The position numbers and the translations under genes are program-made. A stretch of 64,000 nucleotides of DNA from Candidatus Nomurabacteria bacterium RIFCSPHIGHO2_02_40_30 (GTDB taxonomy: Bacteria; Patescibacteriota; Minisyncoccia; Phycocordibacterales; UBA9973). Of the stretch, positions 34,039-52,103 are shown in pieces (positions within the stretch are counted from its first letter, which is position 1; the number at the start of each line of letters is the position of its first letter). The stretch spans positions 95,653 through 159,652 of the forward strand of contig MFTV01000016.1 in the NCBI GenBank assembly GCA_001785445.1, written 5' to 3'. Below the pieces are notes generated by a model. The model worked only from the letters and a program-made list of their open reading frames with translations, was not told where the DNA came from and made no database searches.

Positions 34039-34085
34039 ATTTTTATACTAATTAATCTACTAAAACATCGACATAAATAGTATAA

Positions 34086-34465: not shown

Positions 34466-34589
34466 TGGGAACCTCCTTGTTGTGAACTACTAGACTTGAG
34501 TTAAGTATACTACAAATAGAAAAAGGGAGGCGACGAGTCGACTCCCCACTCGTCTTTCCGAGTTGTCAAAGAGTAGAATCACTTCCGTC

Positions 34590-34793: not shown

Positions 34794-34862
34794 ATTGCCT
34801 CGCTTTCTTTTCTTAGATTACATTCAAGTTAAGTGTACCACAAATAAAAATCAATAGATTAT

Positions 34863-35309: not shown

Positions 35310-35919
35310 TCACCTTCGGACGGTATTGTATTGCCTCTAGGATATGATTACTTTCAACCTCTGGAGAATTTTCAAGGTCGGCGATAGTGCGGGCAATTTT
35401 TATGACGCGGTGATACGCGCGGGCCGAAAGCCCGAGGTGCTCGGCACTGTCGTCCAGTAAGTCGCGCACTTCTTTCTTCAATTTCACCATGGTCGATAAA
35501 TCTTTCACATTCATCTCACTATTGGTAGCTATGTCTCGGCCCAGTTTCTTAAATCTTTCTTTCTGACGCACACGGGCACCTATAACCCGCGCTTTTATTT
35601 TCTCGCTATGCTCGCCCGTTCCCTCCTCACCTAGTTTTTTATAATCCACATTGCCGACAGACACCCAGATGTCGATACGGTCTATTATTGGTCCGGAGAG
35701 TTTTCTTTTATATCTATCAAGGTCGGAAGGTTTACATATGCAAGCTTTTTTCTTGCTGCCAGCATTGCCGCAAGGACATGGATTCATCGCGGCTACTAGA
35801 ATAAAATTTGACGGGAAAATCGCCGAACCTTTAGCGCGAGAAATCGAAACAATATTGTCTTCAAGCGGTTGCCTCAATGATTCGATAACCCTCTTTTCAA
35901 ATTCCGGAAATTCATCCAG
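35302..35919 (-). pseudogene. comM: 3' (C-terminal) fragment of comM/yifB (Mg-chelatase-like ATPase) separated from its 5' half by a 15 kb insertion
   Basis: The translation resumes at 'LDEFPEFEKRVIESLRQPLEDNIVSISRAKGSAIFPSNFILVAAMNPCPCG'. This is the ComM segment that normally follows Walker B 'GVLFLDE'. There is no ATG; the ORF track begins it at TTG. Confidence 0.8.
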
Positions 35920-35978
35920 GATAGTTGTCTCACAAATAGTCATAAGTAAGTTTATAAACAAAGGAAAAACCTTGATTA

Positions 35979-36593
35979 TTAAGACGATTTTACTCTTTTT
36001 ACTTCTATTGTTCCATAGTTGTTTCTATCCCTACCTGAATAATAATCCCCAGTTAAAGAGTCCGTTTCAGCATTGTAAGTAAGTTTTGTTGAACCCTCGT
36101 GTATAGCCATTGTGGACACCGCGTCATACTCTGGTTCATTTCTGAAAAAGTAAAAGAGTGCAGTTTTATTGTCTATTTCACTCCTACCAAAATTCTCATG
36201 TATGCTAACTGATTTTGATTTGTTAAAAATACCATGTATTTTTATTTTTGTTGCAGTCTGTTTAATCACAAGTTGAGCATCTATGTTGGTTGCAAATTTT
36301 TCATAGGAAGATTTTACAATGCCAATCCACTTACCATTCAAGTCATCTGCTATAACAAGTCCAAGCGATTTAAACATTTTTAGTTTCCATAGATACTTAT
36401 CAAAAAGAAAGAAAAGGAATACATATATTGCAGGGACAGAGGGTATTGAGATAAAAATCTGCATAGAAACTGGTAATTGACTTATATACTGACTAAAAAT
36501 AGAAAAAATCAAATAAGCCAAAAGAGTACTAACACTTATTAGGACAACAATGAGGACAGTAAAGATTTTATAGTTGTTTGTATTTATATTCAT
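35979..36593 (-). CDS. 2TM membrane effector-like protein (Cap15 / S-2TM-beta-like)
   Basis: Two N-terminal TM helices (IFTVLIVVLISVSTLLAYLIF; IFISIPSVPAIYVFLFFLF) followed by a ~130 aa beta-rich soluble domain. It lies 7 bp downstream of the nucleotidyltransferase gene. Confidence 0.5.
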   Translation of the reverse strand: MNINTNNYKIFTVLIVVLISVSTLLAYLIFSIFSQYISQLPVSMQIFISIPSVPAIYVFLFFLFDKYLWKLKMFKSLGLVIADDLNGKWIGIVKSSYEKFATNIDAQLVIKQTATKIKIHGIFNKSKSVSIHENFGRSEIDNKTALFYFFRNEPEYDAVSTMAIHEGSTKLTYNAETDSLTGDYYSGRDRNNYGTIEVKRVKSS

Positions 36594-36599
36594 AAAAAG

Positions 36600-37514
36600 T
36601 TAGATAGTATTCCAGTTATCCCATAAGTTTACAAGTGCGTTGATTGTTGTGTTTGCGTCTGTTATGTTCCATTGATGTTTTGAAGTACCAAAAAGTTGAT
36701 GTTGATTACTCTGTGTTACGAAACTGCTTATGTCATGTTCGTTGAGATACTTTAGTATATTAAAAACTGCTGTGTTGTTATCTCCAGTAAACATTTCATT
36801 CGGTACATTATAAACTAAACTTTGTAGAAAATATGAAGGGGCAGTTTCTTCTGACAAAAGACCCTTTTCAACGGCATAAGACCTAGCATTTTTAATAATG
36901 CGTACAACTCTCTTAAATAGATTTGAAGTTGCTTGATGTTTAGCAACTCCATTATTGTAGTGTTGGTCAGGATAATTTATTATTGTCTCTCCTGTTGCCT
37001 TATGATTAAGTAATATCCCTTCTACTTTTGAGTGATTATGTAATCCTAAAAAATATGAATATGTCCGATGTGCAATGACTGGAACAATGTCTGCCTTAAG
37101 ACGACCAGAATTTTTCAATAGTTTTATAGATTTATTACCAGTTTCATCTATAAAAGCATTCCCATAGTAGGCCTTTAGGGCAATAAGTACATCTCTGCGT
37201 AAATGAGCCAAAATGTAATCTGCAGTAAAGTAGGTTTGTTCGTGTAATAAATATTGTTCTCTGGGTAATAATAACTTGTTTGACTGAAAGACATCCAATC
37301 TAACAAGAACATCAACATCACTATCCCCTCTGGTATTTGTATCGTTTGCATATGACCCCTGTAGGTCAATTTTTACCTTGCCTGATGTTATCATTTCACG
37401 GATAGGCGAACTACTACCACTTAGGGCATTCCTAACTGACTGATATGTTGTACTTGAAAGGTCTTTTGACCCCTGTTTTGCCCAAGTATCTAATTGGTTT
37501 GCTGGTATAGACAT
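36600..37514 (-). CDS. CD-NTase/SMODS-like nucleotidyltransferase (pol-beta superfamily)
   Basis: 'DLQGSYANDTNTRGDSDVDVLV' fits GS-x(9-13)-[DE]h[DE]h, and a later 'KADIVPV' supplies a third acidic residue. At 304 aa it is far larger than minimal MNT toxins. Confidence 0.5.
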   Translation of the reverse strand: MSIPANQLDTWAKQGSKDLSSTTYQSVRNALSGSSSPIREMITSGKVKIDLQGSYANDTNTRGDSDVDVLVRLDVFQSNKLLLPREQYLLHEQTYFTADYILAHLRRDVLIALKAYYGNAFIDETGNKSIKLLKNSGRLKADIVPVIAHRTYSYFLGLHNHSKVEGILLNHKATGETIINYPDQHYNNGVAKHQATSNLFKRVVRIIKNARSYAVEKGLLSEETAPSYFLQSLVYNVPNEMFTGDNNTAVFNILKYLNEHDISSFVTQSNQHQLFGTSKHQWNITDANTTINALVNLWDNWNTI

Positions 37515-37674
37515 ATCTATAAGTGGAGTTTACCCCTATGTAATAAATAAATCAAACTTATGTGGATAAAGTTGAAAAAAGTAATGAAACTGTTAACTTA
37601 CTTACTTGATTTTTTAGAAAAAAGGAGTATATTCTCATTTATATAGAAACCGTGTAAAAATTATTTTAATTATT

Positions 37675-38043
37675 ATGAAGCTCAAAAAAGTAAAAATGTC
37701 AGACATACAGGAAGGACCAATAAGACATCTAACTTTGCCTGATGGCTTTATCCAGCGTGTAAAGGAGTTCAAGCAAGCATTAGCCGAGGTTGAAAAAACA
37801 TCACTAGAAAGCACACTTGAAAACTTTCAAAGAGATACAAACCCTGAAAATGAACTAAGGGTATGGGAAAAAATAGCATCAACTTATCAATGGGCTGTAA
37901 TAGACAATGTTGGGCTTATAGAAGCAGAAAAAAAGGATGTCTTTGGTATCTTGCTTGGTTTATCTATGGGTATGAAGGATTTTAGTAATTTCAAGAACTT
38001 GAGTAAAGAAAAAGTTGCTGAAGTTGTTAGTCATTTTTCATAA
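37675..38043 (+). CDS. hypothetical protein (122 aa)
   Basis: Intact ORF on the opposite strand, between the NTase and the recombinase. Confidence 0.4.
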   Translation: MKLKKVKMSDIQEGPIRHLTLPDGFIQRVKEFKQALAEVEKTSLESTLENFQRDTNPENELRVWEKIASTYQWAVIDNVGLIEAEKKDVFGILLGLSMGMKDFSNFKNLSKEKVAEVVSHFS

Positions 38044-38185
38044 AAATACGAAAGCAATTATTTTAGCAAGCGAGTCAGATAAAAATCAGAGTTCAAATGT
38101 ATCTCTTAATCTAATAAAAGGGTGTTGCGTGATTCTGTGTTCACATCTCGTGAATGTTTCTTTATTAGTTGGTGGTCTATACCAT

Positions 38186-39976
38186 CTATAAAACAAATGT
38201 CTTAGGAAAATACATTAGAGGGTTTAATTTGATTATCTGTTGTCTTCTTTCCGTTTCAGAAATCGTCTTTAAGTCTAGTATAAGTGGGAATGACTCTTTT
38301 TGTTCTTGTGAAACTCCGTTAACTAAACTAATGTTTGTTGTCTTCGTATAACTGGGGAACCTGAAAACAACATTAACATAATCCTCTTTTGCATAGAGGG
38401 TAATTCGTTCAATGAATAGAAATACGATTTTTTGCTTTTCTTCATACGAAACATTTTCTAGTCTATTTTTTATTTGTTCGTATACTTTTTTAAGAGACAC
38501 CTCTCTTTCTTCTTTTTCTTTTTTAGTAGTAGACAACTGGTGTAAATGTATCGTTTCATCCTTGAGTTTTTGTTCGTCATTTTTATATTGACTAACATAC
38601 ATTTCATATTGTTTTTTAGAAATCTGTCCATTCACATAAAGTTCATTGGCTCTGTCTCTCTTTTCACTGATTGAAGATGACTCAGTTTCAATTTCTGTTA
38701 ATCGTATTTTAGTTAACTTGGGGTTTTCTGTTTTATAGATGTATTGTTTTAACGGATGAAACATATTTTGTGGATTTTTGAGTATTTCTTTTAAACAATA
38801 CCAGATGGGTTCTAATCTTGCCTCAGAGTATTGAGGACACCACTCACATCTTTTTGTAGTGCCAACAGCGTCATCTTTTCTATAAATACCATGATAGTAT
38901 CTTCCATTACCGTGCTCCCAGTTTTTTCGTGGGGGTTGAAACCCACTAAACATCTTATAATTGCATTTACCACAATAGATAAGTTTTGAATACAAATACT
39001 CTCGTTTCTGATTTCTTTTTGAAAATTCCCTATTTCTCATTAGTTGTTGTTTTGCGAGTTCAAAAGTTTCTGGTGAAATAACCACGGGTGTTTCTATTTG
39101 TACCCAGTCTTCTTTTGGTCTCAATTTATTTTTATCTGTTATACTTGTAAGATTGTTAAAAGGTCTCTTGTATTTTCTATAATAGAAAACTCCAGTATAA
39201 ACTTCGTTAGTTAAAATTCTTCCTATCGTTCGTTTATACCAATAGTTGTTAGTGGTTCGTTTTTTGACTTTAGTAAAATACGGAGTGGGTATTTTCATTT
39301 GGTTCATTCTTCTCTCTAATTCATTTAGAGACAATCTTTCGTCAATGAGCCATTTAAAAAGTTTCTGAACTATTTTTACTTCTTCTGGAACAAGAAGAAG
39401 TTTTTTTGTTTTTTTGTCAACTTTAAAACCAAAAGGAGGCACACCAGTCACCCACTTTCCTGCTTTAGCGGCACATAATTTTCCATTTGATGTCCTTTCT
39501 CTGATAGTTTCTCTTTCCATTTCTGCGACAGCTCCTAAAAGAGTAGTCATAAATTTTCCTGTACTACTTGTAGTATCAAATGCTTCAGTTGTTGAACGGA
39601 AACCAACATTATAATTTCCAAGAAGTTCAATGGCTCCCAGTAATAATGTGGTCTTTCTAAAAAATCTATCTAATCTATAAACAAGAACAACATCAAACTC
39701 CTTGTTTTGTGCGTCAGTAAATAATTGTTTTAGTTGTGGTCTAGAATCAACGGGTAAAGTACCAGAAAAACCTTCTTCAGAATAGATGTGTTTTTCTTCT
39801 AAAGAATAATCTTGAGACTGGACAAAGGCGAGTAGTTTTTCTTTTTGTACTTCAAGTCCGTATCCTGAAATTTGTTCCCCTGTCGATACTCGGAGATACA
39901 AGGCGACTCTTATTTTATTTTTTGTTTCAGTTTCCATTTTCATAATTCTTTTGACGACAGAGTTTAAAGAGTTCAT
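38186..39976 (-). CDS. large serine recombinase (probable start ~39943/39937)
   Basis: Resolvase-type N-terminal catalytic domain 'IRVALYLRVSTGEQ' with catalytic Ser. Large recombinase C-terminal domain with Cys-rich zinc ribbon (CGKCNYKM...C..C). Confidence 0.9.
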   Translation of the reverse strand: MNSLNSVVKRIMKMETETKNKIRVALYLRVSTGEQISGYGLEVQKEKLLAFVQSQDYSLEEKHIYSEEGFSGTLPVDSRPQLKQLFTDAQNKEFDVVLVYRLDRFFRKTTLLLGAIELLGNYNVGFRSTTEAFDTTSSTGKFMTTLLGAVAEMERETIRERTSNGKLCAAKAGKWVTGVPPFGFKVDKKTKKLLLVPEEVKIVQKLFKWLIDERLSLNELERRMNQMKIPTPYFTKVKKRTTNNYWYKRTIGRILTNEVYTGVFYYRKYKRPFNNLTSITDKNKLRPKEDWVQIETPVVISPETFELAKQQLMRNREFSKRNQKREYLYSKLIYCGKCNYKMFSGFQPPRKNWEHGNGRYYHGIYRKDDAVGTTKRCEWCPQYSEARLEPIWYCLKEILKNPQNMFHPLKQYIYKTENPKLTKIRLTEIETESSSISEKRDRANELYVNGQISKKQYEMYVSQYKNDEQKLKDETIHLHQLSTTKKEKEEREVSLKKVYEQIKNRLENVSYEEKQKIVFLFIERITLYAKEDYVNVVFRFPSYTKTTNISLVNGVSQEQKESFPLILDLKTISETERRQQIIKLNPLMYFPKTFVL

Positions 39977-40205
39977 CGTTGGTTAAGACCTCAATTCTTT
40001 CGGTCTTTAGGGTAATAAGTTCATTGGTCAACTCCTCCCTAGAAAGGGTCTGTATTCTTTGAATCTCATCTGAGATTAAACAATCTTTAAGTTCTGTGGT
40101 GTCATTCATATTTTTTGAAAACAATACTGTGTGTGTCTTACAATAAGTTTCCTTATGCATATTGTTATAGGTGTGTATATAAAAGTACAACAAATATGTT
40201 AACAA
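39927..40205 (-). CDS. small hypothetical protein upstream of recombinase (possible recombination directionality/regulatory protein)
   Basis: ORF overlapping the recombinase start in another frame. The real start is likely internal (MNDTTELK...). No motif. Confidence 0.3.
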   Translation of the reverse strand: MLTYLLYFYIHTYNNMHKETYCKTHTVLFSKNMNDTTELKDCLISDEIQRIQTLSREELTNELITLKTERIEVLTNDELFKLCRQKNYENGN

Positions 40206-40313
40206 CTGATGAGACCATTAGAACGATTGGTTGTTTTTGACCTACTGATGTGTGCAAAATTTTAGTTCTATATATAGATTGCATAGTTGCAACGATGAGT
40301 ATTAAGTAAGTAT

Positions 40314-42170
40314 TTATTCAAAAAGGTGTTCCATCTCTTCATCCTCTTCGTCTATTTTTACGATTTCTTCATCGATTTCAATAGTAGATTTTGTAATGGA
40401 CTCTTTTGGTGTTGTTAATTTTTCGTCCTCTCTGGGGAGTCTGTAAATGTTTCTCTTTCCTGACTTGTCGACCACTATCTTTTTCTCTTTTGTTAGTTCT
40501 TTAAGTGCATCTACAACATTCCTCCCACCTGCTTGTGCTTTTACTGCTTCTTGTAATGCTTCCTTTATGTGTGGACCATCCTCCAGTACGATTAAGATAG
40601 CCATTTTTGCATTTTCTTTTTTGCTTTTTTCCTCTTCAATTTCTTGATAATCCCCTAAAGATACTTTTCCGTCTACTTCAATCAACTTCACACTAAAGGG
40701 GTCAGCTGCTTTACTTCGTCTTGACTTCACATGCTCAATTTCCATAATAAACGCTTTTGTATTTTTTTTATCTTTTTTAACTGTTATGTGTGAATCTAAT
40801 CTTCCTGAAATAGCAGACGAACCACGAAGACTTTGTGCTCCTTTTGGTTGTCCGATTCCATCTTTTCTGTGGTGATGGATAAATAAAACAGAAGCACCTA
40901 CTTTATTTATTTCTTGCATAGCTTGCATAATCTGTTCTGCTTGTTCAGCACTATTTTCTTCTTTTGAATGTAGTGCTGCGAATGGGTCAAACATAACCAA
41001 AGAAATATTGTTTTGTTGAACTATGTTTTTAAGTTGGTCTAAGTCTTTTCTATTATCAATTTTGAAGTGTTGAAGAATACTAAACATAATTGGTAAATCT
41101 TTTTTGAATGACATTCTTTCTATTCGTCTTTTTGTCTCACCCTCACCTGACTCTTCATCAACAAGAAGTATTTTTCCAGTCATAGTTTCAAAATGGTCAA
41201 ATACTTTTTTACCTGATGCTATTGCTTTAGCAATATGCAACATTACCCAACTTTTTCCATGACTTGGTTGTCCTGAAAGAGCAATAATGCCTTGCCTTGG
41301 GATAAGTGGATTGACTAAAAATTCCTGTTCTTTGGTCTCTAGTTTTAAAACATCACTAACAGAAAGTATTTTTATCAATCGTTGTTCCGTGTTTTCGGGT
41401 TCTTTCCCATCTTTTCTTTGTTTTCTTTGAGATTCTGCAAGACTCTCGAAAACTTCAAATAAGTGTTTGTCTTCTAATGGTGGATTGTTGTTTTTGTTCC
41501 ATGACTGGACTAACGGGAAACAAAAAGTAAACCAATCCTTTTCTGAATATTGGTATAACAATTTTCCAGAAATTCGAGTTAAAACATCATGACGAGAACC
41601 TGTCTCAACTCCACTAAATAGAACATCCCATTTTTGGTCTGACTGGTTGTGATTTTGAGTTGTCTTTTTTTCGTCAAGAACCATCCACTTTGGAACTTCA
41701 GCAAGGGGTAGTTTGTCTAAATCAATTTCCCATTCGTAATGATTCCCAGATAGATGAAGAGATGGGGGGACAACTATGTATCCCCCATCACCTCTAATAT
41801 CTATTTTACGACCCAAAATACGAGTGGCATTTTTTATACCAGTCTCAGGATATTTGAAGTAGAAATGTTTCCCTCCCCCTCCAGATTTCACAGTCGGGGT
41901 GTTTGGTATCTCTAATCCAGTTGTATCTCCGTCATGTTCAACATCTAAAACAACTATCCCAGAAATTTTTCCTGTCACTAATGCAATACCATCTGGGATA
42001 TTGTTCTTAAACCATGATTCTATTTCTTCTTTACTGGCTTGTCTTTCTTGATACTCTTTCCAAGACGACAAGAGTGGTGTTTTGTCTCTTTTGATGGGGA
42101 TAACAGAGAGCCCCTTTTCTTGAAGTCGGAGAGCGGCCTGAAGTAGAACACTTCTTTTTTTTGTTTGCAT
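40314..42170 (-). CDS. bifunctional primase-polymerase (Prim-Pol) N-terminal domain fused to RecA-like/DnaB-like helicase (AAA_25-type) replication protein
   Basis: N-terminal 'GLSVIPIK...GIALVTGKISGIVVLDVEHDGD...GGGGKHFYFKY...DIRGDGGYIVVPPS' is a prim-pol signature. Central P-loop 'LSGQPSHGKSW' and 'ILLVDEESGEG' are also present. Confidence 0.75.
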   Translation of the reverse strand: MQTKKRSVLLQAALRLQEKGLSVIPIKRDKTPLLSSWKEYQERQASKEEIESWFKNNIPDGIALVTGKISGIVVLDVEHDGDTTGLEIPNTPTVKSGGGGKHFYFKYPETGIKNATRILGRKIDIRGDGGYIVVPPSLHLSGNHYEWEIDLDKLPLAEVPKWMVLDEKKTTQNHNQSDQKWDVLFSGVETGSRHDVLTRISGKLLYQYSEKDWFTFCFPLVQSWNKNNNPPLEDKHLFEVFESLAESQRKQRKDGKEPENTEQRLIKILSVSDVLKLETKEQEFLVNPLIPRQGIIALSGQPSHGKSWVMLHIAKAIASGKKVFDHFETMTGKILLVDEESGEGETKRRIERMSFKKDLPIMFSILQHFKIDNRKDLDQLKNIVQQNNISLVMFDPFAALHSKEENSAEQAEQIMQAMQEINKVGASVLFIHHHRKDGIGQPKGAQSLRGSSAISGRLDSHITVKKDKKNTKAFIMEIEHVKSRRSKAADPFSVKLIEVDGKVSLGDYQEIEEEKSKKENAKMAILIVLEDGPHIKEALQEAVKAQAGGRNVVDALKELTKEKKIVVDKSGKRNIYRLPREDEKLTTPKESITKSTIEIDEEIVKIDEEDEEMEHLFE

Positions 42171-42209
42171 AACATATTTTTTTACTAAAGATAAACTCTA
42201 ATACTAAAA

Positions 42210-42566
42210 CTACTTTTTAGTTTGAGTATTATTAAACCAATAATAAGTTTTGTGGGTAAATTTAGCCTCTAAGGGATTAAACTTACCTGAACAAGTAAAC
42301 CGAGTAATAAAATCAGTCATTTGAATAAACATTGTTATCTTCTTTTTTGGTATGTCGTAACGACATCTAAGAACAATTTCTTCTTTGTCTTTCAAGCCAC
42401 TAACATGTCCAGTGTTTATCGACTCTGCACTTATTTTTCTTTCCACAATAGATTCTAATTCTTCACAAATATTTTCCATGCTGTCTTGAACCGCCACTCT
42501 ATATTTGTCTCCAGGTTGTCTAGTATTCTTCAGACTTATATCTCTTACTTTATTTATTTTTTTCAT
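42210..42566 (-). CDS. hypothetical protein (118 aa)
   Basis: Intact ORF with no motif. Confidence 0.4.
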   Translation of the reverse strand: MKKINKVRDISLKNTRQPGDKYRVAVQDSMENICEELESIVERKISAESINTGHVSGLKDKEEIVLRCRYDIPKKKITMFIQMTDFITRFTCSGKFNPLEAKFTHKTYYWFNNTQTKK

Positions 42567-43308
42567 CTTCTAATTCGTTATCACTTATAATTTCGCTGGA
42601 TTTTATTTCATCTGACGATAAAATAAGCTGAAAGAAAGCATTAAATACTGCAGATATTTCTTGCTCAATTTTTTTATCATTTTTAGACATAGAAAAGGCC
42701 AGCTACAAGATTGTGCCTAATACATTGAATTTTTGAGTATGACCACTACTACAAAAAATAAATGCCAAGCAAATCTTTTTTTGCAGTTTTTTTTGGTAGA
42801 GTGAGAATGTCACCGCTGGTTCGACCTGAAGCGACAACACAATTTAGATTAAACTGACTACATATTAAGTATGGCATGCAGAAATACCAAAAGTGTCAAA
42901 ATAAGATATAAAAAAAGAGAAAAGTAAACAAGAAATAAAAAACTCTTATTTTTAAAGACTCTTTTGGATTTATATAACAGTATGTTGATTACTTGTCAAT
43001 TTTTTTGACACTTTTTTAGCCCTTTTGAGCAAAAAAGGCTACACAAAAATGACCCAGTTTTAGTAAAAAATTGTATGGATATAGAATACCACCTCTTTCA
43101 CGGGGGAAGGCCTCTAAAAGGACTCTAGAATGGCCAGACACCCAATTAGGGTGTTGGTTGTCCTAGTTTATACATGTGCATGCTAATCCAAAACACAGTT
43201 CTATAAACTTTACTATATAAACTCGTAAATCATTATGAATCTCGTAGAAGCTATAATGGGTTGCTACTCGTAGCGTCGTACACAATTTTTCCATTAAAAA
43301 TCATTCAG

Positions 43309-44295: not shown

Positions 44296-44490
44296 GGGTA
44301 GAGACCGAAGTCTCTCATATTAGTTTCCTAATATGGCCTGACGGACACCCCATATGATGGGTTCTTTATGTCCGTCAGGACTCTTTCACCATGCTATTGA
44401 AAAATCAATAGTTTAGGCTACTTTTAAAATATTCAGTTGTATCTATATAGTATTACTTGTCTAAAGAAATGTAAAATAAAGAGGTCATAA

Positions 44491-45309
44491 CTACATGATA
44501 AGAGTTGATAATTCCTTTGCATTATTGAGTGGTAATGATAGATATAATGCCTTTTCTGATTTGCCTGCTTGTACCATCTTTTTTAATGTAAAGTTTTGCG
44601 AGAAGAAGTTTTTATCAATATATCCAACTATGTATGCTTTTCGAGTTGATATATCAATATAAATTCTTACATAAAAAAAACGCATATTGATTTGCTCTTC
44701 ATTGCGCATTTTTAATATACACTCAGAATTAGATAAACAATTAAAACTCCTGTATGTTTTACAAAAATTTATATAGTCCATCAAATTGTTTATTTTATCA
44801 AATTCATCTACACGGAGATATTTAGGGTACTCAAGAAAATCATCACTCATGATAATACTAGAGATGTTCTGGTCACTGCTTCCTGTTCTTTTGTGCCGCT
44901 CTGCAACTCTTGTAGATTTTATTTCAACCGTATAAATACCATTACTTTCAAGACCAATTTTTGTCCCATCACTTATCTTCCCATAGTCACTATTTTTAAC
45001 CTCATAATTGATTTGTTCTATATATTTATTAACTATTGATTGGTCTTTATTTGATACGAATATTATTCCATCAAAAGGAGCATGCTTTTCAAAATTATTA
45101 GACCTAAACTCATCATACGATAAGTATTTATAATTCGGAAAATTCTGAATTATAAATTCCTTAAACACTTTTTCAGCAATTTTACCTAGTGATGTATCTG
45201 AAGCTTTTTCTTCGTTAGAACGACCTAGTTGCCATGTATTTGCTGTGTTTTCAACAATCTTTTTGAAACTACCAGAATTGTTAATTGTTATATCATTAAT
45301 TATTATCAT
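44491..45309 (-). CDS. hypothetical protein co-transcribed with type III res; possible PD-(D/E)xK fold
   Basis: Overlaps the res stop by 4 nt. 'PFDGIIF...YEVKNS / VEIKST' weakly resembles a PD-ExK nuclease core. Confidence 0.4.
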   Translation of the reverse strand: MIIINDITINNSGSFKKIVENTANTWQLGRSNEEKASDTSLGKIAEKVFKEFIIQNFPNYKYLSYDEFRSNNFEKHAPFDGIIFVSNKDQSIVNKYIEQINYEVKNSDYGKISDGTKIGLESNGIYTVEIKSTRVAERHKRTGSSDQNISSIIMSDDFLEYPKYLRVDEFDKINNLMDYINFCKTYRSFNCLSNSECILKMRNEEQINMRFFYVRIYIDISTRKAYIVGYIDKNFFSQNFTLKKMVQAGKSEKALYLSLPLNNAKELSTLIM

Positions 45310-47849
45310 TGCTTTTTCAATTCTTCAAATAATCTTACCTGCTCACGCTGGAGTGAAGCATTGAAAATGATATGATATTCAAAGTTTTTATTTATACTCT
45401 TAAAATCAGAGAAGCCGATTTCTTTTGCTAGTATTTCGTTTGTGAGATTTTCCATTTTGCCTTTGTATGATTTTTTATTTGCTTCATAGTCAGCTTGTTC
45501 GTCTCCTCCTTTCGTTTCAATCACTAAAAAACGTTCCTTTGATGTTTCAATGAGAAAATCTGGAAAGTATCGCCCCATACGCTTTTGCTCTGGACTCCAA
45601 TATTCAAAGTAAAAATCGGTTCGGCTCGGGTCTGCACAAACACGAGCTCCTGTAAAATATATATCTTTGATAGTTTCTTTTTTTTCAAGCACACTTCTCA
45701 AGTATCGAAATAAATCCTTTTCATCACTACTATCAAAAGCATACGGATTGATGTGAAAACCGATACGACCCTTTCGTCCTTCTTCTGCTTCAGTTTCTTT
45801 GTATACTACTAGAGTATTTCTACCCTGTTGAACACTAATTTTAAACGGAAAGAGTTTTGTAAGTTCAAGTTCTTCTTCTACAATCTCAGTCTTTTCTTCA
45901 TACTTGTAAGCACTTTTTAGGATTTCTTGTACTATAAATGGAACGAGGGCGAAATTCTCATTTGTCATTTTTACAAACTCATCCCGTTTCTTGCTACTAG
46001 AAATAATACTACTAATCACAATACACGATAGGTGTGTATAGCGATTGATAATTTCTACTATCTCGTAGAAAGTAAAATCGTTTTTGTCTTCTATTTTTCG
46101 GACTGCTCTAACTTCACTGTATCCAGCATTTCCCTCATCACCAAGAAAGATACCCCCCTCACTGACAAATGACTGGTATCGCTCTGGCTTGAACTTCTTA
46201 AAATCTACTTTTATGTTCTCTGCGTTCGCCTCCTGTACTGCTAAAATCTCTTTAAGCACCTTCTTAACTTTGATGGTCTTTCGTTTCTCAACTTCTAGTG
46301 TATGTTCTACCATTTTCTGGTCTTGTGTATTCAACTCGCTTATGCTGGAAGCAAAGTTATTCTTAAGTTCTTTATCAAGTATTTTGTAATTTTCCTTTGA
46401 AAGAAAGATGTGAGCACGAGTAGAATTGTCACCAATAGCACGGAGACATCTTGTTGTGGATTGAAGCACAAGGATAGTGCTTTTTGGCTTTTTATACAGA
46501 GCAACTGAAACAAGCGAACGACAATTCCATCCTTCAGTTCCTTTACCTACGAGCAGTACAAATCGCTTTTTGCTTTCTGCTGTATCAAGCTGTCTAAAAT
46601 CATTAATGTTTTCTTCTGCTCGTGTGTGATATTCCAGAATAGTGCTTGGCGAGATATTTCTCTCTGTGAGAATACGCTCCAGTTTTGGCTTCAAGTCAGT
46701 TTGTAAATCATTAATGTTTGATGCGTAAAAAGCAATCTTCGGCAATCGTCCTTCAAGTCTCTTCTTGTCATACTCAGCAATAAAAGTATCAATGACTTCT
46801 TCAAGAAATTTTTGTGACCGCACTATACCATAATCTAAGATGCGAACCTGTTTCAAAATTCCTTTCTCTATACCTTGCTTAAGACCGAAGTGATACACTA
46901 CATCAGAAATCATCTTATTGTTTACATAGGGAGTTCCTGTGAGGTTCACTACAGATATAAGTGGTGTGTGCTTGTGTAAATAATCAATCGTTTGACGTGT
47001 TTTCTTCAAAGTTCCTTCAAGAGTTTTGCCATATGAATGATGGGCTTCGTCCACAAAAATTTGAAGTGAACCAAGTTGTCGTATGGCTTGCAATCGCATA
47101 TTCTCAACCTCTCGTTTCCCGAGCTCATTCTTATCGCCAAAAAGACGCTTTGTGGCATTGTTTTCGTCCCCATTTCTTGTCTTCAAAATTATCTTCTGTG
47201 AGTTGGAAACAATGACATTATAGTTCCCATTTGGAGCTAGAGGAGTGTCAGTACTTTCAAGGTAATGGTATTTTATATTCAAAATGATATTCTCGTATTC
47301 TTTCGGAAGCACTCGTGAGTAGTCAAAAGTCTTGATTTCTTTCAAGCTCTCAATGATGGTTGTATCAGGAGCAAAGACTAGAGCATTTTTCGCAAAACGT
47401 TCGTCATCATTGTGATAGAACGAAAGCACAAAATCATAGAGCATCATCACGGCCATCAAAATTGTTTTACCCGAACCCATTGTGAGAGCATAGACCTGAT
47501 TTGCATAATCCGAAGTCCCGAACTTATCATCAAGAATTAGCTGTATTTTTTCATCTTTTTTCTTATCGTAGGCAAGCTCAAACGCTTCTTTGTCAGAAAT
47601 ACCCAGAGCACGGATGAGTTCAATTTCATTTTCAAATGATTGTCGGAACACTTCCACTGACGGCTTGTTGCCTACTACTTCTTTGAGGTAGATATAAGTT
47701 TCCAATGCTTCAATCTGTGGCTCGTGCAAAAAAGCTACTCGCTTGATGTGAGTGAGAATGTTCTCCGTCTCTTTGTACACGCTTTTATATCCATCAGCAC
47801 GCCAGAGAGCTACTTGTTTTTGTATGTTTTGAAGAAAAAAACTATCCAT
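45306..47849 (-). CDS. res: type III restriction enzyme Res subunit (SF2 helicase + C-terminal PD-(D/E)xK endonuclease)
   Basis: Walker A 'LTMGSGKTIL', DEAH 'IFVDEAHHS', motif VI-like 'VGKGTEGWNCRS' and C-terminal 'FPDFLIE...LVIETKG'. Confidence 0.8.
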   Translation of the reverse strand: MDSFFLQNIQKQVALWRADGYKSVYKETENILTHIKRVAFLHEPQIEALETYIYLKEVVGNKPSVEVFRQSFENEIELIRALGISDKEAFELAYDKKKDEKIQLILDDKFGTSDYANQVYALTMGSGKTILMAVMMLYDFVLSFYHNDDERFAKNALVFAPDTTIIESLKEIKTFDYSRVLPKEYENIILNIKYHYLESTDTPLAPNGNYNVIVSNSQKIILKTRNGDENNATKRLFGDKNELGKREVENMRLQAIRQLGSLQIFVDEAHHSYGKTLEGTLKKTRQTIDYLHKHTPLISVVNLTGTPYVNNKMISDVVYHFGLKQGIEKGILKQVRILDYGIVRSQKFLEEVIDTFIAEYDKKRLEGRLPKIAFYASNINDLQTDLKPKLERILTERNISPSTILEYHTRAEENINDFRQLDTAESKKRFVLLVGKGTEGWNCRSLVSVALYKKPKSTILVLQSTTRCLRAIGDNSTRAHIFLSKENYKILDKELKNNFASSISELNTQDQKMVEHTLEVEKRKTIKVKKVLKEILAVQEANAENIKVDFKKFKPERYQSFVSEGGIFLGDEGNAGYSEVRAVRKIEDKNDFTFYEIVEIINRYTHLSCIVISSIISSSKKRDEFVKMTNENFALVPFIVQEILKSAYKYEEKTEIVEEELELTKLFPFKISVQQGRNTLVVYKETEAEEGRKGRIGFHINPYAFDSSDEKDLFRYLRSVLEKKETIKDIYFTGARVCADPSRTDFYFEYWSPEQKRMGRYFPDFLIETSKERFLVIETKGGDEQADYEANKKSYKGKMENLTNEILAKEIGFSDFKSINKNFEYHIIFNASLQREQVRLFEELKKQ

Positions 47850-47854
47850 AATTT

Positions 47855-49846
47855 TTACGCATTTACTTCAAATGTCTCAAAGTATTCTTCCCCAAGCACA
47901 TCTACAATCTTGATTGCGACAGTGTATTTACCTTTCTTTTGGTACTCCCACGAATACTTGGCTTTAATAATTTCTTTCTTGTCTGGCAGGTCTATCACTT
48001 CAGCATTAAATAATTTGCTGTTATAATCCACGTCAATAGCAACACTATCAATGATTTGCTTGAAGTCATTAACTTTTGTTTTATGCTCTTTCTTGAGTAC
48101 CTTCTCGTTTTCAATCTCTAGCTTTCGCATTAGTATAGGAGAATAAAAATCATTGAGCTCAACAGTAAGCTTTTTATCTTTCACTTTCATTTCAATTTTC
48201 GCTTCTGGTTTTTTCTTAAAGATAAGGTTTTTCTTATCAGTCAAAATATCTCTAACTTCAATTTTAACACCCGTCTTGTTTTCCTTCTTAATAAAATCCA
48301 TTACATCAAGTTCCATTCCTGAACAAACAACGAGTACTCCTTCTTCGTAAACTGCATCTCTTGCTTTTGATTTTATCTTCACAGTAAAGCTATCTAGTTT
48401 ATCTCCTATACTCTTGAGCATTGTGCGAATGTCCATCTTGTTTAAAACTCGATTAAGAGACATTATCTTAACAAAGTTCTTGTCTAAAACACCATCAAAG
48501 TAAATTCGCTTTACTGGTTCTATCCCATACATCTCCATCACGATTTCTTTTGCCTCAAGCTCGTTTTTAAACACATCATAATCGTTCACATTGAGTATTT
48601 TGAAACCAAGTGAACCTTTAAAGTTCTTTGTTTTTTCTTTTTGCTGGTCTGTAATAATTTGACCGAGCCGTTTTGTGCTTGTTTGTATTGCCCCTATGTT
48701 AATATCGCACCCTATCCATCGTCGTCCGAGCTTCTGTGCAACAGCACAAGTAGTACCAGAGCCGAGAAAGAAATCCGCAACAAGGTCTTTCTCATCTGAG
48801 GATGCTTCTATTACTCTTTTGAGTAAAGCTTCAGTTTTTTGTGTCGGATAACCTGTATCTTGACCTGGAGTCGTACCAAGTCCTGCTATATCTTCCCATA
48901 TATTATCCACGGCTCGTTCTGCAATATATTTACTCCCCTTCTTTTTTAGATAATACTTCACACCAACACTACCACCATTACTACAAGAAACTGTTTTCGT
49001 CTCTTCATTAAAAACAACTTTACCACCAAAAGGCGCATATAGACGTCCTTCTTTATGAAGTTTTTTCAGTGTCTCAAAGCCAGAAGAACCTGGGTCAGAG
49101 GAATGGAAATACCCTCCCTCATCTTTCCTATACTCACTCGCCGCTTCTTCTTCCGTTAGCTTTGTTTCTTTCTTTTGAGAATGCCAAGTCGTTGGATACT
49201 TTTTATTTTTTGCATAGATGTTTAAAAAATGTGTACTATAAGCATAATAAAAAGCATTGACCTTTGCCCCACGAGCAACCTGACTTCTCCATGAGATAGT
49301 ATTTAAATAGCTGTCCTCACCAAAAACATCATCTAATAAAAGTCGTATATGATGTTCTTTTCTATGGTCGCAGTGAACATATATTACCCCCTTTTCCGAA
49401 AGAAGTTCTTTCATAAGAAGGATGCGCTCATACATAAACTGCAAGAACTCGTCATTTGCCCAAATGTCGGAATATTGTTTTTCTTCTAGCAAGCCTTGTT
49501 GTATACCCTCTATTTTCTCCCCTCGTATTTTCACACGCCTCACATACTCTGCTTCACTAGCAAATGGAGGGTCAATGTATATCAAATCAACCTTACCACG
49601 ATAGTTCTTTAAAAGGTGAGAAAGGACTTGGAGATTATCCCCCCAAAATAGTTTGTTGAAATCCTCTGCACTCTTATCGCCATACACCTCAGTTTCTTGT
49701 GCAGGATAAAATTGTACACCCTCAAGGGGTTTTTTACCTACCCACTGGAGAAGCGGACGACCTTTTGCTTGTTCTACTTTTTGATACTGTTGTTCTTTTT
49801 GATTTTTCATAACATTTTTTTCACTCTTACATTCCATAAATAGCAT
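47855..49846 (-). CDS. mod: type III R-M Mod subunit (beta-class N6-adenine DNA methyltransferase)
   Basis: Motif IV 'DLIYIDPPF' precedes motif I 'DFFLGSGTTCAVA'. Lies 5 bp upstream of res. Confidence 0.8.
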   Translation of the reverse strand: MLFMECKSEKNVMKNQKEQQYQKVEQAKGRPLLQWVGKKPLEGVQFYPAQETEVYGDKSAEDFNKLFWGDNLQVLSHLLKNYRGKVDLIYIDPPFASEAEYVRRVKIRGEKIEGIQQGLLEEKQYSDIWANDEFLQFMYERILLMKELLSEKGVIYVHCDHRKEHHIRLLLDDVFGEDSYLNTISWRSQVARGAKVNAFYYAYSTHFLNIYAKNKKYPTTWHSQKKETKLTEEEAASEYRKDEGGYFHSSDPGSSGFETLKKLHKEGRLYAPFGGKVVFNEETKTVSCSNGGSVGVKYYLKKKGSKYIAERAVDNIWEDIAGLGTTPGQDTGYPTQKTEALLKRVIEASSDEKDLVADFFLGSGTTCAVAQKLGRRWIGCDINIGAIQTSTKRLGQIITDQQKEKTKNFKGSLGFKILNVNDYDVFKNELEAKEIVMEMYGIEPVKRIYFDGVLDKNFVKIMSLNRVLNKMDIRTMLKSIGDKLDSFTVKIKSKARDAVYEEGVLVVCSGMELDVMDFIKKENKTGVKIEVRDILTDKKNLIFKKKPEAKIEMKVKDKKLTVELNDFYSPILMRKLEIENEKVLKKEHKTKVNDFKQIIDSVAIDVDYNSKLFNAEVIDLPDKKEIIKAKYSWEYQKKGKYTVAIKIVDVLGEEYFETFEVNA

Positions 49847-49936
49847 TGTAAGAAATTGATAATGGCTTCCGTTATTCCTAGTATTCAGTATATTATAGTT
49901 TCAAGTATTTATACATATTTCCATATTAAGCTTCTA

Positions 49937-49976
49937 CGCTTTTTCTGCGAAAAGTATCTGCTACACTATATCACAC
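49937..49976. promoter_or_regulatory. ~40 bp conserved upstream motif (copy 1) shared by two element operons
   Basis: cgctttttctgcgaaaagtatctgctacactatatcacac lies upstream of mod. A similar motif at 51006..51045 lies upstream of the HEXXH/CPBP genes. Confidence 0.4.
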
Positions 49977-50028
49977 TATTTTAGTCAGTTTTTTTATTAG
50001 TTTTTAACCTTTTAAGAACTAATACAAA

Positions 50029-50475
50029 TCAAGCTTTTACTATAATGTTGTAGAGTAAATGCAAGTAGACTGGAATTAGTAAAGCAAATGAATACCAAAT
50101 ACTCTTAAAAGATAAGTATTTCGGGTTGGTTGCTAAGTAAAAGAAGTAAGCCATTACAAGTCCAAGTATGACATGAACCCAAAAAGGAACTATACTAGCT
50201 TTTCCATAAGCCATTAAATGGTAAATTCCTTCCATGAAACCAAAACCAATACTTACGAATGGAATTGTAGAGGGTGTTAAATAAGCAATTCTTATTAAGA
50301 GTAATGCTGTTCCGAACTTTAATCCCTCTTCTAGCCATGGACCATAGGATATTGAGCTATAGGATGAAAGAAAACTAGGAAATAAATGAAAAAATAAAAT
50401 AATGAGACAAAGCAAACTTCCTCCAGCAAAAAAAGATGCTATTGCTTGAAGAAATAATAACTGCTTTTGAGACAT
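50029..50475 (-). CDS. CPBP-family (CAAX protease/Abi-like) intramembrane protein
   Basis: Multi-TM. Motifs 'PWLEEGLKFG' (EE), 'FMEGIYH' (FxxxH) and 'HLLYN' (HxxxN). Confidence 0.55.
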   Translation of the reverse strand: MSQKQLLFLQAIASFFAGGSLLCLIILFFHLFPSFLSSYSSISYGPWLEEGLKFGTALLLIRIAYLTPSTIPFVSIGFGFMEGIYHLMAYGKASIVPFWVHVILGLVMAYFFYLATNPKYLSFKSIWYSFALLIPVYLHLLYNIIVKA

Positions 50476-50493
50476 TTTACAAAATTTTTATTG

Positions 50494-50958
50494 TTAATTG
50501 CTTTTCTTCCCCGACTGTAGTTGCCAACTTTTATATACATACCTTTTGAATGACCCAGTGAAATGAGGTTGCAACCATTGAATAGCTTGCTTATCAGCAC
50601 TTCTTTCTCGTTTAATGTTTACCGCAGGATTTGTATCATTAATACTTACAAATCCATGCCTAAGATATGCATGTGCAACTTCATGAGCAACGACAAATGT
50701 TATAGCTTTTTTATTTTCAAACCAAAGTACATTAGACAACAATATTATATTTTGTTTGCTTTTAAGACGAAAATCACTGAGAGATAAATGTATTCCCCTG
50801 TAGTCTTTTTCTAAAGAAACAAAAACACATTTCTCAATAACAAAATCTATGACTTTTTCTGGCAAGTAAGACAAAGCTGTGGAGAGAGGAACTCTTGCAT
50901 ATTCAGGGATGAAATCAGTATCTCCCAATTCATAGTCAATCTTTTCTAGTGTGTGCAT
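50494..50958 (-). CDS. HEXXH zinc metallopeptidase-like protein (ImmA/IrrE/SprT-like)
   Basis: 'FVVAHEVAHAYLRH' HExxH motif. 154 aa. Confidence 0.55.
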   Translation of the reverse strand: MHTLEKIDYELGDTDFIPEYARVPLSTALSYLPEKVIDFVIEKCVFVSLEKDYRGIHLSLSDFRLKSKQNIILLSNVLWFENKKAITFVVAHEVAHAYLRHGFVSINDTNPAVNIKRERSADKQAIQWLQPHFTGSFKRYVYKSWQLQSGKKSN

Positions 50959-51005
50959 AAGAATATTATAATAATTATACTTCAGGTATGTTCTTTGGTT
51001 TCTGG

Positions 51006-51045
51006 CCTTTTCACACGAAAAGTATCGGCCTACCTATATGACACA
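51006..51045. promoter_or_regulatory. ~40 bp conserved upstream motif (copy 2) near right end of element
   Basis: ccttttcacacgaaaagtatcggcctacctatatgacac is similar to 49937..49976. It overlaps hairpin GGCCTAcctatatgacacaaacaTAGGCC followed by a T-run. Confidence 0.4.
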
Positions 51046-51074
51046 AACATAGGCCTGTTTTTTTTATTACTTTT

Positions 51075-52103
51075 TTAAGCATAATAAGGTTCTATTTGTG
51101 GGACATCTATTAATGTGTAAGTCCTGCTATATGGACTTTTTACACTTAGCGGAACACCTTTTAGAAACAAAACTCCTCTGTGAGCCAGTGTCACTTCTCC
51201 TGGTTTAGGGTATGTTCCTCCACCAACGATAGATACGTAAGAAGATGTATGATGTGGAGCACGAAAAGGCGGAAAGCAAACCAATTCCCCTCGAATATTT
51301 CCTGCCACGGAGTGAATGCCTGTTATCTCCAGCACTTCTTCGGTACTTAAGTCTGGCAATAACCCAGAGAATACTCTGGCCAGCATGGTCTTGCCTGTGC
51401 CCGGCGGGCCATACATGGCTATGTTGTGCCCGCCGGCAGCCGCTATCTCGAGCCCGCGCTTGGCGCCTTCTTGCCCTCTGATATCAGCGAAATCCCCGCT
51501 CTGATTCTCTTTGGTTTCTTTTTTATAATTTATTTTAGTTCTTGGCTGAGGAATAATTTTCTTCTGTTTACGTTCCGGATTTTTTGTTTCGTCAATATGC
51601 GAAATAACGTTTTTGAGGCTTTCAGCGCCAAAAATTTTTATACCTTCCACTAAGGCTGCTTCCACTGCATTTTCTTTCGGCAAATATATTTCTTCGTAAC
51701 CTTTTCTCTTTGCTTCTTCCGCCAAAGGCAATGCCCCACGAATACTACGCAGTGTGCCGTCAAGACCAAGCTCGCCAAGGAAAATTTTTTTTTCTGAATT
51801 AAATTTAATTTCTCCTGCTGATTTTAAGTAGGCCATAGCGATAGCCAAATCGAAAAACGGTCCTTCTTTCTTCAGGTCAGCCGGCGAGAGCGACACGGTG
51901 ATTTTCTGATTTTTAGCCTTAGGAGATTTATAACCGGAATTCTTTATGGCCCCACTTACCCTGTCTTTCGACTCGTCCACAGCTTTGTCCGGCAAGCCCA
52001 CCACAGAAAAAGTATGTAGACCTTTCGACAAGTCTACTTCTATGGTCACGATAGCTCCTTTTAACAAATTTACTTGTGCTGAATAAACTTTAGCAAAGCT
52101 CAT
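51075..52103 (-). pseudogene. comM: 5' (N-terminal) fragment of comM/yifB; comM-derived part is 51162..52103 and the last 28 codons are read-through into the inserted element
   Basis: Lon-like N-terminal domain, Walker A 'IAMYGPPGTGKTML', '...RAPHHTSSYVSIVGGGTYPKPGEVTLAHRGVLFL', then unrelated 'KGVPLSVKSPY...*'. Confidence 0.8.

Follow-up and report, generated by a model that had tools for sequence, protein, structure and literature searches.

A large-serine-recombinase element that splits comM in a Candidatus Nomurabacteria genome and carries candidate alternative attachment sites

Our analysis concerns a 64,000-nt stretch of DNA, termed the window, from Candidatus Nomurabacteria bacterium RIFCSPHIGHO2_02_40_30 (Patescibacteriota; Minisyncoccia; Phycocordibacterales; UBA9973). 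The window corresponds to positions 95,653-159,652 of the forward strand of contig MFTV01000016.1 (GCA_001785445.1). Within it, 15,243 bp of DNA (35920..51162) interrupt the Walker-B motif of the minus-strand gene comM, separating VLF-L from DEF. The interrupting DNA encodes a large serine recombinase (LSR), a replication protein, a restriction-modification (R-M) operon, and a CBASS (cyclic-oligonucleotide-based antiphage signaling system) gene pair. It also carries a LOOT RNA, and a second, intact attachment (att) site lies just inside one of its junctions (Table 1). Loci and contigs fetched for comparison are designated by L-numbers (for example, L082 and L256); most of those discussed here carry homologs of the recombinase.

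Parts of comM are present in open reading frames (ORFs) at both ends of the interruption. The amino-terminal ORF (51075..52103, minus strand) reads ...AHRGVLFL and then continues into 28 unrelated residues encoded by the element, with a stop at 51075. The carboxy-terminal ORF (35302..35961, minus strand) reads ...TTI-LDEFPEFEK.... Pfam assigns the two halves to complementary parts of the Mg_chelatase profile (positions 1-116 and 111-206), and tblastn matches the amino-terminal half at 100% over residues 1-314. A preliminary description of this DNA had placed both ORFs, and the 28-residue tail, correctly. Its remark that the second ORF has no ATG does not hold, as an in-frame ATG is present nine codons before the junction Leu codon. 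Rejoining the halves between L and D yields a 518-aa protein, of which residues 17-515 align to the solved ComM structure 8rxd (E=1e-111). The alignment runs straight through the Walker-B motif (AHRGVLFLDEFPEF against AHHGVLFLDELPEF), which confirms the proposed break between L and D and identifies the fragments as contiguous halves of one protein. An uninterrupted 518-aa ComM ortholog with 95% identity is present in the protein collection.

Each junction contains one copy of the dinucleotide CT, which forms the first two bases of the Leu codon and sits at the symmetry center of the att half-sites. The attL sequence is ...gtt ttg ttt CT/aaaaggt..., with CT at 51164-51163, and the attR sequence is ...aactatc/CT g gat gaa, with CT at 35919-35918 (the slash marks the junction). 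The junction repeat is thus 2 bp, with no longer duplication. CT had been put forward previously as the candidate crossover dinucleotide, and this arrangement bears the proposal out. The earlier estimates of the junctions (~51161 and ~35919) prove right to within about 1 nt.

Related genomes provide examples of the unoccupied site. A genome scan produced 80 Ca. Nomurabacteria/Paceibacteria loci, and comM is continuous across the junction in all 80. The occupied context is found in 24/24 contigs read for the identical recombinase. Because these contigs were assembled independently and all share the same context, the insertion is not an assembly artifact. The element has a GC content of 34.3%, versus 40% for its flanks, and a GC content at third codon positions (GC3) of 0.24-0.34, versus 0.37-0.46. 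The comparisons that had been suggested at the outset, namely of the fragments with intact ComM, of the locus with unoccupied comM genes, and of the element with its flanks, all support the original proposal of an integrative element with a large serine recombinase in comM at the L/D boundary. We regard the insertion of an LSR element in this gene as virtually certain.

The recombinase, which is 100% identical to P0001 of Ca. Nomurabacteria GW2011_GWF2_40_31, looks intact as judged by its domains and catalytic residues. Residues R16, S18, R91, and R94 are invariant and D90 is near-invariant in 17 recombinase homologs. The Zn_ribbon_recom match (0.0066) is below the cut-off, and CxxC...CxxC pairs are visible in the sequence. 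NCBIfam models find the protein weakly CcrB/CcrC-like. Its clade is specific to Patescibacteria and shares at most 29% identity with phage integrases.

Homologs of this recombinase (38-85% identity) define a family of elements, of which 18 are distinct and have usable genomic context. In 17 of the 18, the recombinase gene lies upstream of a carboxy-terminal comM half that starts exactly at the D of DEFPEF. The distance from recombinase to comM half is 0.3-6.4 kb, or 0.3-3.0 kb in all but L254. Both comM halves are visible in nine elements, and the core dinucleotides of attL and attR match in each. A family of Patescibacteria elements that splits comM at one codon in 17 of 18 cases is a new observation. 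A metagenome scan with the recombinase alignment used patterns that were too degenerate, and it yielded only ~11 family loci; the remainder were unrelated integrases, and the loci of these serve below as negative background for LOOT RNA and comM.

Family elements range from 8.5 to 15.2 kb in size and carry either a RepO-like or a PrimPol-helicase replication gene. The cargo is variable and includes type II R-M pairs, a diversity-generating retroelement, an OLD-like nuclease, a UmuDC-like pair, and HTH/M78 pairs. L171 carries a type III-like module resembling that of the window.

The family member outside comM is L253 (groundwater contig, 5157-13900), whose recombinase is 51% identical to that of the window. 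This element begins 2-3 nt past the stop codon of rplE and lies upstream of an intact but unannotated rpsN, within a ribosomal protein operon. It contains a LOOT RNA, a RepO-like gene, and an OLD-like nuclease gene, and it has an internal perfect CT palindrome at 13500. Two human gut metagenome contigs (L150 and L153) encode distant serine recombinases (~28-34% identity) that adjoin a comM fragment. This fragment starts near residue 358 (the AAMNPCPCG region), so that comM was entered at another point than in the window family, in agreement with a general role of this gene as an LSR target.

The att sites of the family share the geometry TTGTGGGAC-7-NN-7-GTCCCACAA, with its center on bases 1 and 2 of the Leu codon. 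The site used for integration of the window element (site 1) is divided between the two junctions. Its right arm is homologous to aaaacaa GTCCCGCTATTTG of an intact CT site in L256. Exact matches to TTTGTGRGAC occur only twice in the 64 kb, once at each end of the element and in inverted orientation, and one of these copies lies in the left arm of site 1. The other copy, at the attL end, is not at the junction but is part of the internal site (site 2), whose TT core at 51113-51112 is 51 nt from the attL core. The right arm of site 2 and the bases that follow (together ~33 nt) show complete identity to the arm that L082 used at its attL. A strict scan for att sites found 15 in 226 kb, compared with 1.5 in shuffled sequences (maximum 5). 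A loose scan gave counts equal to the shuffles, and thus only the strict scan is informative. A generic repeat search within the element returned AT-rich noise only.

Internal sites recur across the family. The used core is CT in the window, L169, and L084, each with an internal TT site at +51, and in L172, which has an internal AT site at +53. The used core is TT in L171, L170, L256, L082, and L092, and the internal CT site of these elements is at -52, -51, -51, -1612, and -536, respectively. Elements L254 and L099 used AT; the former has internal TT and CT sites, and the latter has internal CT, GT, and TG sites. Among complete internal sites, the core never equals the used core of the same element. 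Spacing of 51-53 bp is kept in seven elements, with recombinase identity of 53-79%, and the two types of site have distinct conserved spacers (..ATC/CT/AAAA.. for CT and ..ACA/TT/AA.. for TT). The 51 nt that separate comM from the perfect GTCCCACAAA arm might have been a random remnant, but this was ruled out by the architecture shared among L084, L169, L172, and L256.

Most decisive is the comparison with L256/L257, a complete element of 10,352 bp that encodes a recombinase with 79% identity to that of the window. When the circular junctions of the two elements are reconstructed, they are colinear through both sites. The window element, with CTG as the host codon, crossed over at its CT site, and L256, with TTA as the host codon, crossed over at its TT site. 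Among the 79 intact comM genes that are readable at the Leu position, the codon is TTR in 48, CTN in 29, and ATG in two. The CT, TT, and AT of these codon alleles are the three cores that dominate the arrays.

LSRs need identical central dinucleotides in both partner sites, as established for Bxb1 and phiC31 and restated in a survey (PMC10083194), and therefore the arrayed sites are expected to be mutually orthogonal. The sequence patterns described above suggest that the arrayed sites probably function as alternative attP sites. We propose that the window harbors a 15.2 kb integrative, and probably replicative, element without virion or conjugation genes. The recombinase would join attP of the circular element to attB inside comM, with crossover at the first two bases (CT) of the Walker-B Leu codon in VLF-L-DEF. 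The circular form would carry an array of two or more attP sites rather than one. From the recombinase onward, the cargo would be followed by attP(CT), then by 51 bp or a segment of cargo, then by attP(TT or AT), and finally by a promoter-like module. Each site would fit one target codon allele (CTN Leu, TTR Leu, or ATG Met), and integration would proceed through whichever attP matches the host codon. The window element would have used its CT site and retained the TT site intact 51 bp inside attL.

Insertion splits comM and should inactivate it. Based on work in Proteobacteria, cells without functional comM would be expected to recombine heterologous transforming DNA less efficiently, which would in turn protect the element against replacement by the empty allele. 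The variable cargo is of an anti-phage kind. In the window it comprises a CBASS of type I, a three-gene R-M operon that is type III-like, and a HEXXH protein with weak similarity to Lit. The PrimPol-helicase would replicate the excised circle, and the 61-aa ORF overlapping the recombinase start is a candidate excision factor. Present-day activity and a route of transfer are presumed in this proposal. As a whole, an explanation that combines LSR insertion with functional alternative attP sites seems quite likely. We also moderately favor the more specific idea that the array (CT, TT, and AT) evolved as an orthogonal set, such that one recombinase fits any comM codon spelling, and that the spaces between sites provide a platform for defense cassettes.

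Several observations weigh against this explanation. The identical empty-site ComM allele was sought in the protein collection and was not found, the best intact sequence being 95% identical, and every one of the 24 contigs read shows the occupied site. An exact search of IMG/VR for the circular junction P-CT-P' produced no match. Transfer machinery was not identified either: Pfam searches of ORFs of at least 90 aa, which did not extend to oriT, found no relaxase, coupling protein, or type IV secretion genes. Both sites in the window have degenerate inner arms (GTTCCGCTA and TAGCAGGAC). One hypothesis is that the inner arms are captured host comM DNA; however, by manual comparison their similarity to attB arms (~52%) is no better than that to the P' consensus (~56%). 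L096 used TT and shows no second site in the available 1.4 kb, and L099 has GT and TG sites, of which TG is without a plausible Walker-B codon. The AT core is palindromic, and a palindromic core loses orientation control in characterized integrases. If the two-site architecture was inherited from one ancestor, the arrays would amount to few independent observations. Finally, the role presumed for ComM in Patescibacteria is taken from work on other bacteria.

The possibility that no insertion took place, because comM is naturally split or the contig is chimeric, can be dismissed almost entirely. A chimera is only a formal possibility for a metagenome-assembled genome. Both versions are refuted by the halves that abut perfectly on the 8rxd structure, the 80/80 intact relatives, the same junctions in 24 independently assembled contigs, the matching attL and attR cores in nine family elements, and the shift of GC and GC3 at the junctions. 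A more serious alternative retains the insertion but assigns a single attP to each element. The internal att-like site would then be a fossil without present function, left by tandem accretion or by a decayed second element. Tandem accretion could explain why 0.5-5 kb of cargo separates sites from one another in L082, L092, L099, and L254. It could also explain why L082 repeats a P' arm plus promoter-like module before a DUF5655 segment, an arrangement that resembles cassette acquisition, and a fossil site would account for the degenerate inner arms in the window. However, sequential integration by one recombinase should leave the same core throughout an array, and the internal cores never match the used core. 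Random decay would not maintain the 51-53 bp spacing in seven elements, and tandem accretion accounts neither for this spacing nor for the distinct conserved spacers of the CT and TT sites, both of which are real crossover sites in close relatives. A fossil site is therefore considered unlikely, and functional alternative sites remain our preferred explanation of the arrays.

Two further alternatives concern the nature of the element rather than its sites. Gene-intervening switches are exemplified by the prophage in Listeria comK and by the skin element in sigK. The window element could similarly be domesticated, with regulated precise excision restoring comM when competence-type recombination is needed. 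Excision by a serine recombinase would restore the ORF exactly, the recombinase gene is coupled to a conserved small ORF and preceded by a conserved P-arm-like half-site upstream of the operon, and the element is stably present in every contig of the organism read. Its sporadic distribution argues against a switch, since comM is intact in 80/80 related species representatives. So do the widely variable, defense-related cargo, the replication module, and the retargeting of L253 to a ribosomal operon. Variable cargo, replication module, sporadic distribution, and retargeting fit a selfish mobile element better, and we consider a switch improbable, even though it is compatible with LSR insertion through alternative attP sites. 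A defective prophage or phage satellite, packaged and moved by a helper phage, appears to be just as doubtful. The recombinase does match a PHROG integrase (2.6e-105), the PrimPol protein matches phage primase PHROGs, relatives encode RepO-like proteins, and a size of 8.5-15 kb is satellite-like. However, no capsid, terminase, portal, or tail match was obtained with Pfam or PHROG in the ORFs tested, except for one weak partial match inside Res. The family is also absent among 2.9 million IMG/VR contigs, in which the best recombinase match is 29% identical and a search with a 17-sequence recombinase alignment retrieved distant integrases only (at most 29% identity). Megablast of the element against phage and plasmid records found no match. 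The element family is thus not catalogued as viral.

The remaining genes of the element were compared with the cargo listed in the preliminary description. The CD-NTase/2TM pair, Mod, the Res helicase, the PrimPol/helicase, and the HEXXH protein were identified as listed; the label "CPBP" for the membrane protein was not upheld, as its only match is a weak, PrsW-like one (Pfam, E=0.0036). The list had overlooked the internal second att site and the LOOT RNA, as well as the membership of the element in a widespread family. Homologs of the membrane-protein gene are present at the left end of L082 and L169. The CBASS locus is of type I, with a cyclase beside a single effector and no Cap2/Cap3 or HORMA/TRIP13, and its neighbors are the recombinase gene and comM. 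The cyclase also matches an NCBIfam anti-phage nucleotidyltransferase model (2.8e-81, below the cut-off).

In the R-M operon, Res matches the NCBIfam BPTD_3080 restriction endonuclease below the cut-off (3e-21) and has no PADLOC REase_III match; its nuclease motif was read by eye. The 272-aa product of the third gene falls outside the canonical type III R-M system, and a D...EIK motif, also read by eye, suggests that it is a PD-(D/E)xK nuclease. A third gene (236 aa) also follows Mod and Res in L171, and it corresponds in position to that of the window. The replication protein matches a PHROG DNA polymerase/primase family (3.9e-37).

Table 1. Features of the comM locus and the inserted element (window coordinates)
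Feature	Coordinates	Strand	Evidence or remark
comM amino-terminal half (Lon-like ChlI domain, Walker A, up to VLFL)	51163..52103	-	Pfam ChlI 9.9e-41
attL crossover dinucleotide CT, first two bases of Leu codon	51163..51164	-	Same as attR core; center of half-site geometry
att site 1 (CT), right arm: aaaaggt GTTCCGCTAAGTG	51143..51162	-	GTYCC motif starts exactly 7 nt from core
att site 2 (TT), intact, internal: TAGCAGGAC ttacaca TT aatagat GTCCCACAA	51096..51129	-	Arm scores 8/9 and 9/9
Conserved A-rich/stem-loop module, promoter-like, copy 1	51008..51075	-	Aligns with L082 attL flank, L082:11903-12003, and window 49929-50005
Small HEXXH metallopeptidase-like protein	50494..50958	-	Weak: Pfam Peptidase_U49 7.6e-4, PADLOC Lit 3.8e-6, NCBIfam Lit 8.9e-5; M48-like
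Polytopic membrane protein, weakly PrsW-like	50029..50475	-	Pfam PrsW-protease 0.0036, below cut-off
A-rich/stem-loop module, copy 2, upstream of mod	49929..50005	-	blastn to L082:11937-12014
Type III-like R-M Mod methyltransferase	47855..49846	-	Pfam N6_N4_Mtase 2.5e-42; PADLOC MTase_III 6.3e-62
Res: SF2 helicase with carboxy-terminal PD-(D/E)xK-like motif (FPDF...VIETKG)	45306..47849	-	Pfam ResIII 7.4e-9
Third R-M operon gene, 272 aa	44491..45309	-	No Pfam, PADLOC, PHROG, or NCBIfam match
LOOT RNA (Rfam RF03000), full length	44300..44419	-	85.7 bits versus gathering score 46.4; E=2.4e-15; model positions 1-121
Secreted or membrane-anchored protein	43309..44295	-	ORF directly downstream of LOOT; likely start MKRYS at 44232
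742-bp stretch without ORF of at least 60 aa	42567..43308	.	Only ORFs of 25-46 aa
118-aa ORF	42210..42566	-	No match (Pfam, PADLOC, PHROG)
PrimPol/PriCT/AAA_25 helicase replication protein	40314..42170	-	Pfam Prim-Pol 1.7e-30, AAA_25 6.8e-28, PriCT_1 3.2e-8
61-aa acidic ORF overlapping recombinase start	39927..40112	-	35-52% identity, same position, in 7 family members
Large serine recombinase, 583 aa from METETK (ORF extends to 39976)	38186..39937	-	Pfam Resolvase 5.9e-35, Recombinase 3.9e-18
122-aa ORF, opposite strand	37675..38043	+	No match (Pfam, PADLOC, PHROG, NCBIfam)
CBASS CD-NTase (cyclase), GS...DSDVD motif	36600..37514	-	PADLOC 7.9e-100; Pfam NTP_transf_2 and SMODS weak
CBASS effector, Cap15-like: two transmembrane (2TM) helices and cyclic-dinucleotide receptor domain	35979..36593	-	Pfam Cap15_CD_rec 9.1e-26; PADLOC 2TM 3.7e-62
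att site 1, left arm: TATTTGTGAGAC aactatc	35920..35938	-	Exact TTTGTGRGAC match
attR crossover dinucleotide CT	35918..35919	-	Sequence
comM carboxy-terminal half (LDEFPEF... to stop)	35302..35919	-	Mg_chelatase positions 111-206; Mg_chelatase_C 1.6e-30; tblastn

Several noncoding segments of the element are conserved in relatives. A module of ~70 nt, consisting of an A-tract, a variable stem-loop with compensatory changes seen by eye in the alignment, and then GATACTTTTCGCG, follows the P' arm and is repeated ahead of cargo operons. Copies are present in the window, at 3310-3390 and 11903-12014 of L082, and at ~4660-4720 of L084. This module could be a promoter or leader, or could mark a cassette boundary. 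The 742-bp stretch that lacks long ORFs shares 82.8% identity over 559 nt with L082:7296-7847 (blastn). It is as conserved relative to L082 as is the recombinase gene, despite the different replication proteins of the two elements, and it could be an origin or a regulatory region.

The operon that begins with the 61-aa ORF, for which no PHROG family match was found, is preceded by sequences resembling the att arms. The P-arm-like half-site TTTTTRYRGGAC and an inverted copy of a site-1 arm (GGAACACCTTTT) were noted at window positions ~40135-40150 and 40309-40332, and GGAACACCTTTT lies just past the PrimPol stop codon. In most members examined, TTTTTRYRGGAC occurs singly, 35-40 nt upstream of the small ORF/recombinase operon. 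It is present in the window, L082, L084, L169, L170, L171, and L256, and it is not evident in L085. The half-site is a candidate operator for autoregulation of the recombinase. The 61-aa ORF may encode a directionality (excision) factor or a regulator.

LOOT RNAs are present in most family elements (L082, L085, L092, L099, L169, L170, L172, L253, L254, and the window). The LOOT RNA usually precedes the gene for a small membrane-anchored protein; in the window, the product of the downstream ORF has no family match in Pfam, PHROG, or NCBIfam. A profile search of 3.43 Mb of fetched loci detected LOOT RNAs in family elements only, plus one weak match in L105, and the flanks of the 80 loci with intact comM contained none. 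The window has another copy, at 2968-3089 (minus strand, 76.7 bits), within a separate tyrosine-integrase element. LOOT RNAs thus seem to mark integrative elements in these bacteria. The main text of the paper reporting the discovery of LOOT does not discuss it.

The second integrated element occupies approximately positions 1-9350 of the window. Its tyrosine integrase gene (8247-9164; Phage_integrase 1.1e-30) adjoins a tRNA-Lys gene (9273-9346). Besides the LOOT RNA, the element contains genes for an AAA ATPase (7020-8135) and an S8 subtilase (4655-7018) and several other ORFs, with a GC content of 30-36%.

The DNA downstream of comM also differs from that of relatives. In relatives such as L004, an orf68-S24 peptidase gene pair follows comM within ~120 nt. 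In the window, a NUDIX gene (34863-35309; GC3 of 0.23, which is element-like) and ~0.8 kb without long ORFs lie between comM and this pair, and NUDIX is downstream of comM in no relative. A P-arm-like half-site (TATTTGTGGTAC acttaac TT) is present at 34835-34846, directly after the NUDIX gene. The region from 34040 to 35309 may be a remnant of another insertion. Past the conserved S24 peptidase gene, the window has DUF6996/6997 and N6_N4 methyltransferase genes (31568-33251). The corresponding region of L082 (16701-18141) encodes a PDDEXK_5 nuclease and a C5 methyltransferase. This location looks like a second small, variable R-M islet near comM.

The mobile elements of Patescibacteria are poorly described. 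The window element extends the known pattern of comM-splitting serine-recombinase islands with defense cargo to these organisms. Because Patescibacteria are thought to depend on DNA uptake, the loss of ComM is of biologic interest. The att array bears on a problem that faces any site-specific element whose 2-bp crossover core requires an exact match, namely synonymous variation at that core. Should both sites be active, they would represent a natural answer to this variation, and the host range would be widened by a new route that leaves the strict site specificity of the element intact. Such a system would also be useful for integrase engineering, as one enzyme would act on several orthogonal site pairs. 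The orphan LOOT RNA gains a context as well, being carried on integrative elements of these bacteria.

An array of adjacent sites recalls two well-known recombination systems. Like the window element, SCCmec and other SCC (staphylococcal cassette chromosome) elements, which are moved by CcrAB or CcrC, are non-phage, non-conjugative, LSR-moved cassettes with variable cargo and sometimes several att sites. However, SCC elements insert at the 3' end of rlmH and preserve this gene, and their composite arrays reflect sequential insertion with one shared core. In the window family, the arrayed cores differ and the target gene is destroyed. A composite SCC-type array was rejected as a model, as it would share one core per array and the internal cores observed here never equal the used core. 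The res sites of Tn3 and gamma-delta likewise have several adjacent recombinase-binding palindromes tens of bp apart, of which only site I is a crossover site, whereas sites II and III are accessory. An accessory role of this type is contradicted for the window family because both sites serve as crossover sites in different integrated copies of the same homologous array (CT in the window and TT in L256).

The insertion of an LSR element into comM is itself of a known kind. Homologs of Mg-chelatase/ATP-dependent protease (the ComM/YifB family) are the most enriched LSR target, accounting for 12.4% of site-specific LSRs, and competence genes are enriched as LSR targets (PMC10083194). Thus, of the novelty suggested in the preliminary description, the candidate phyla radiation (CPR) host and the recombinase family are new, and LSR insertion in this gene family is already common. 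The elements surveyed by Durrant et al. 2022 (PMC10083194) resemble that of the window in having an LSR and a core of 2 bp, and they likewise disrupt a target of the Mg-chelatase gene family. For each of those elements, a single attP was inferred from isolate genomes, whereas the window family has attP-like arrays with differing cores. A similar insertion is known for Wolbachia phage WO, in which the LSR of sr1WO integrates into a magnesium chelatase gene and gene fragments flank the element (PMC9203015). In contrast to the window element, which is without virion genes, WO has the full gene set of a tailed prophage, and it is not reported to have a second att site.

The preliminary description correctly named comM as a hot spot for island integration, with the AbaR islands as an example. 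Disruption of comM by mobile elements, which often carry CBASS, is well documented, and the proposed benefit is that the element is shielded from removal by transformation (PMC11472951, PMC4774983, PMC12378983). The AbaR/AbGRI islands, like the window element, interrupt the Mg-chelatase domain of comM and often carry defense cargo such as CBASS. However, these and other comM islands move by Tn7-like transposition or tyrosine integrases in Proteobacteria, rather than by a serine recombinase with a 2-bp core in CPR bacteria. In the window element, no TnsA/B/C-type (tniA/B/C) domain was detected in any ORF scanned, and there is no 5-bp target duplication. Within a limited literature collection, we found neither a paper linking comM, Patescibacteria, and integrases nor a description of a natural element with several attP sites.

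The closest counterpart to the arrays comes from the laboratory. Orthogonal att sets have been engineered for phiC31 and Bxb1, in which one integrase acts on several site pairs, distinguished solely by the 2-bp core, without cross-reaction between pairs (PMC3936721). Those sets are laboratory constructs, whereas the array of the window family seems to have evolved naturally to cover the codon variants of one target.

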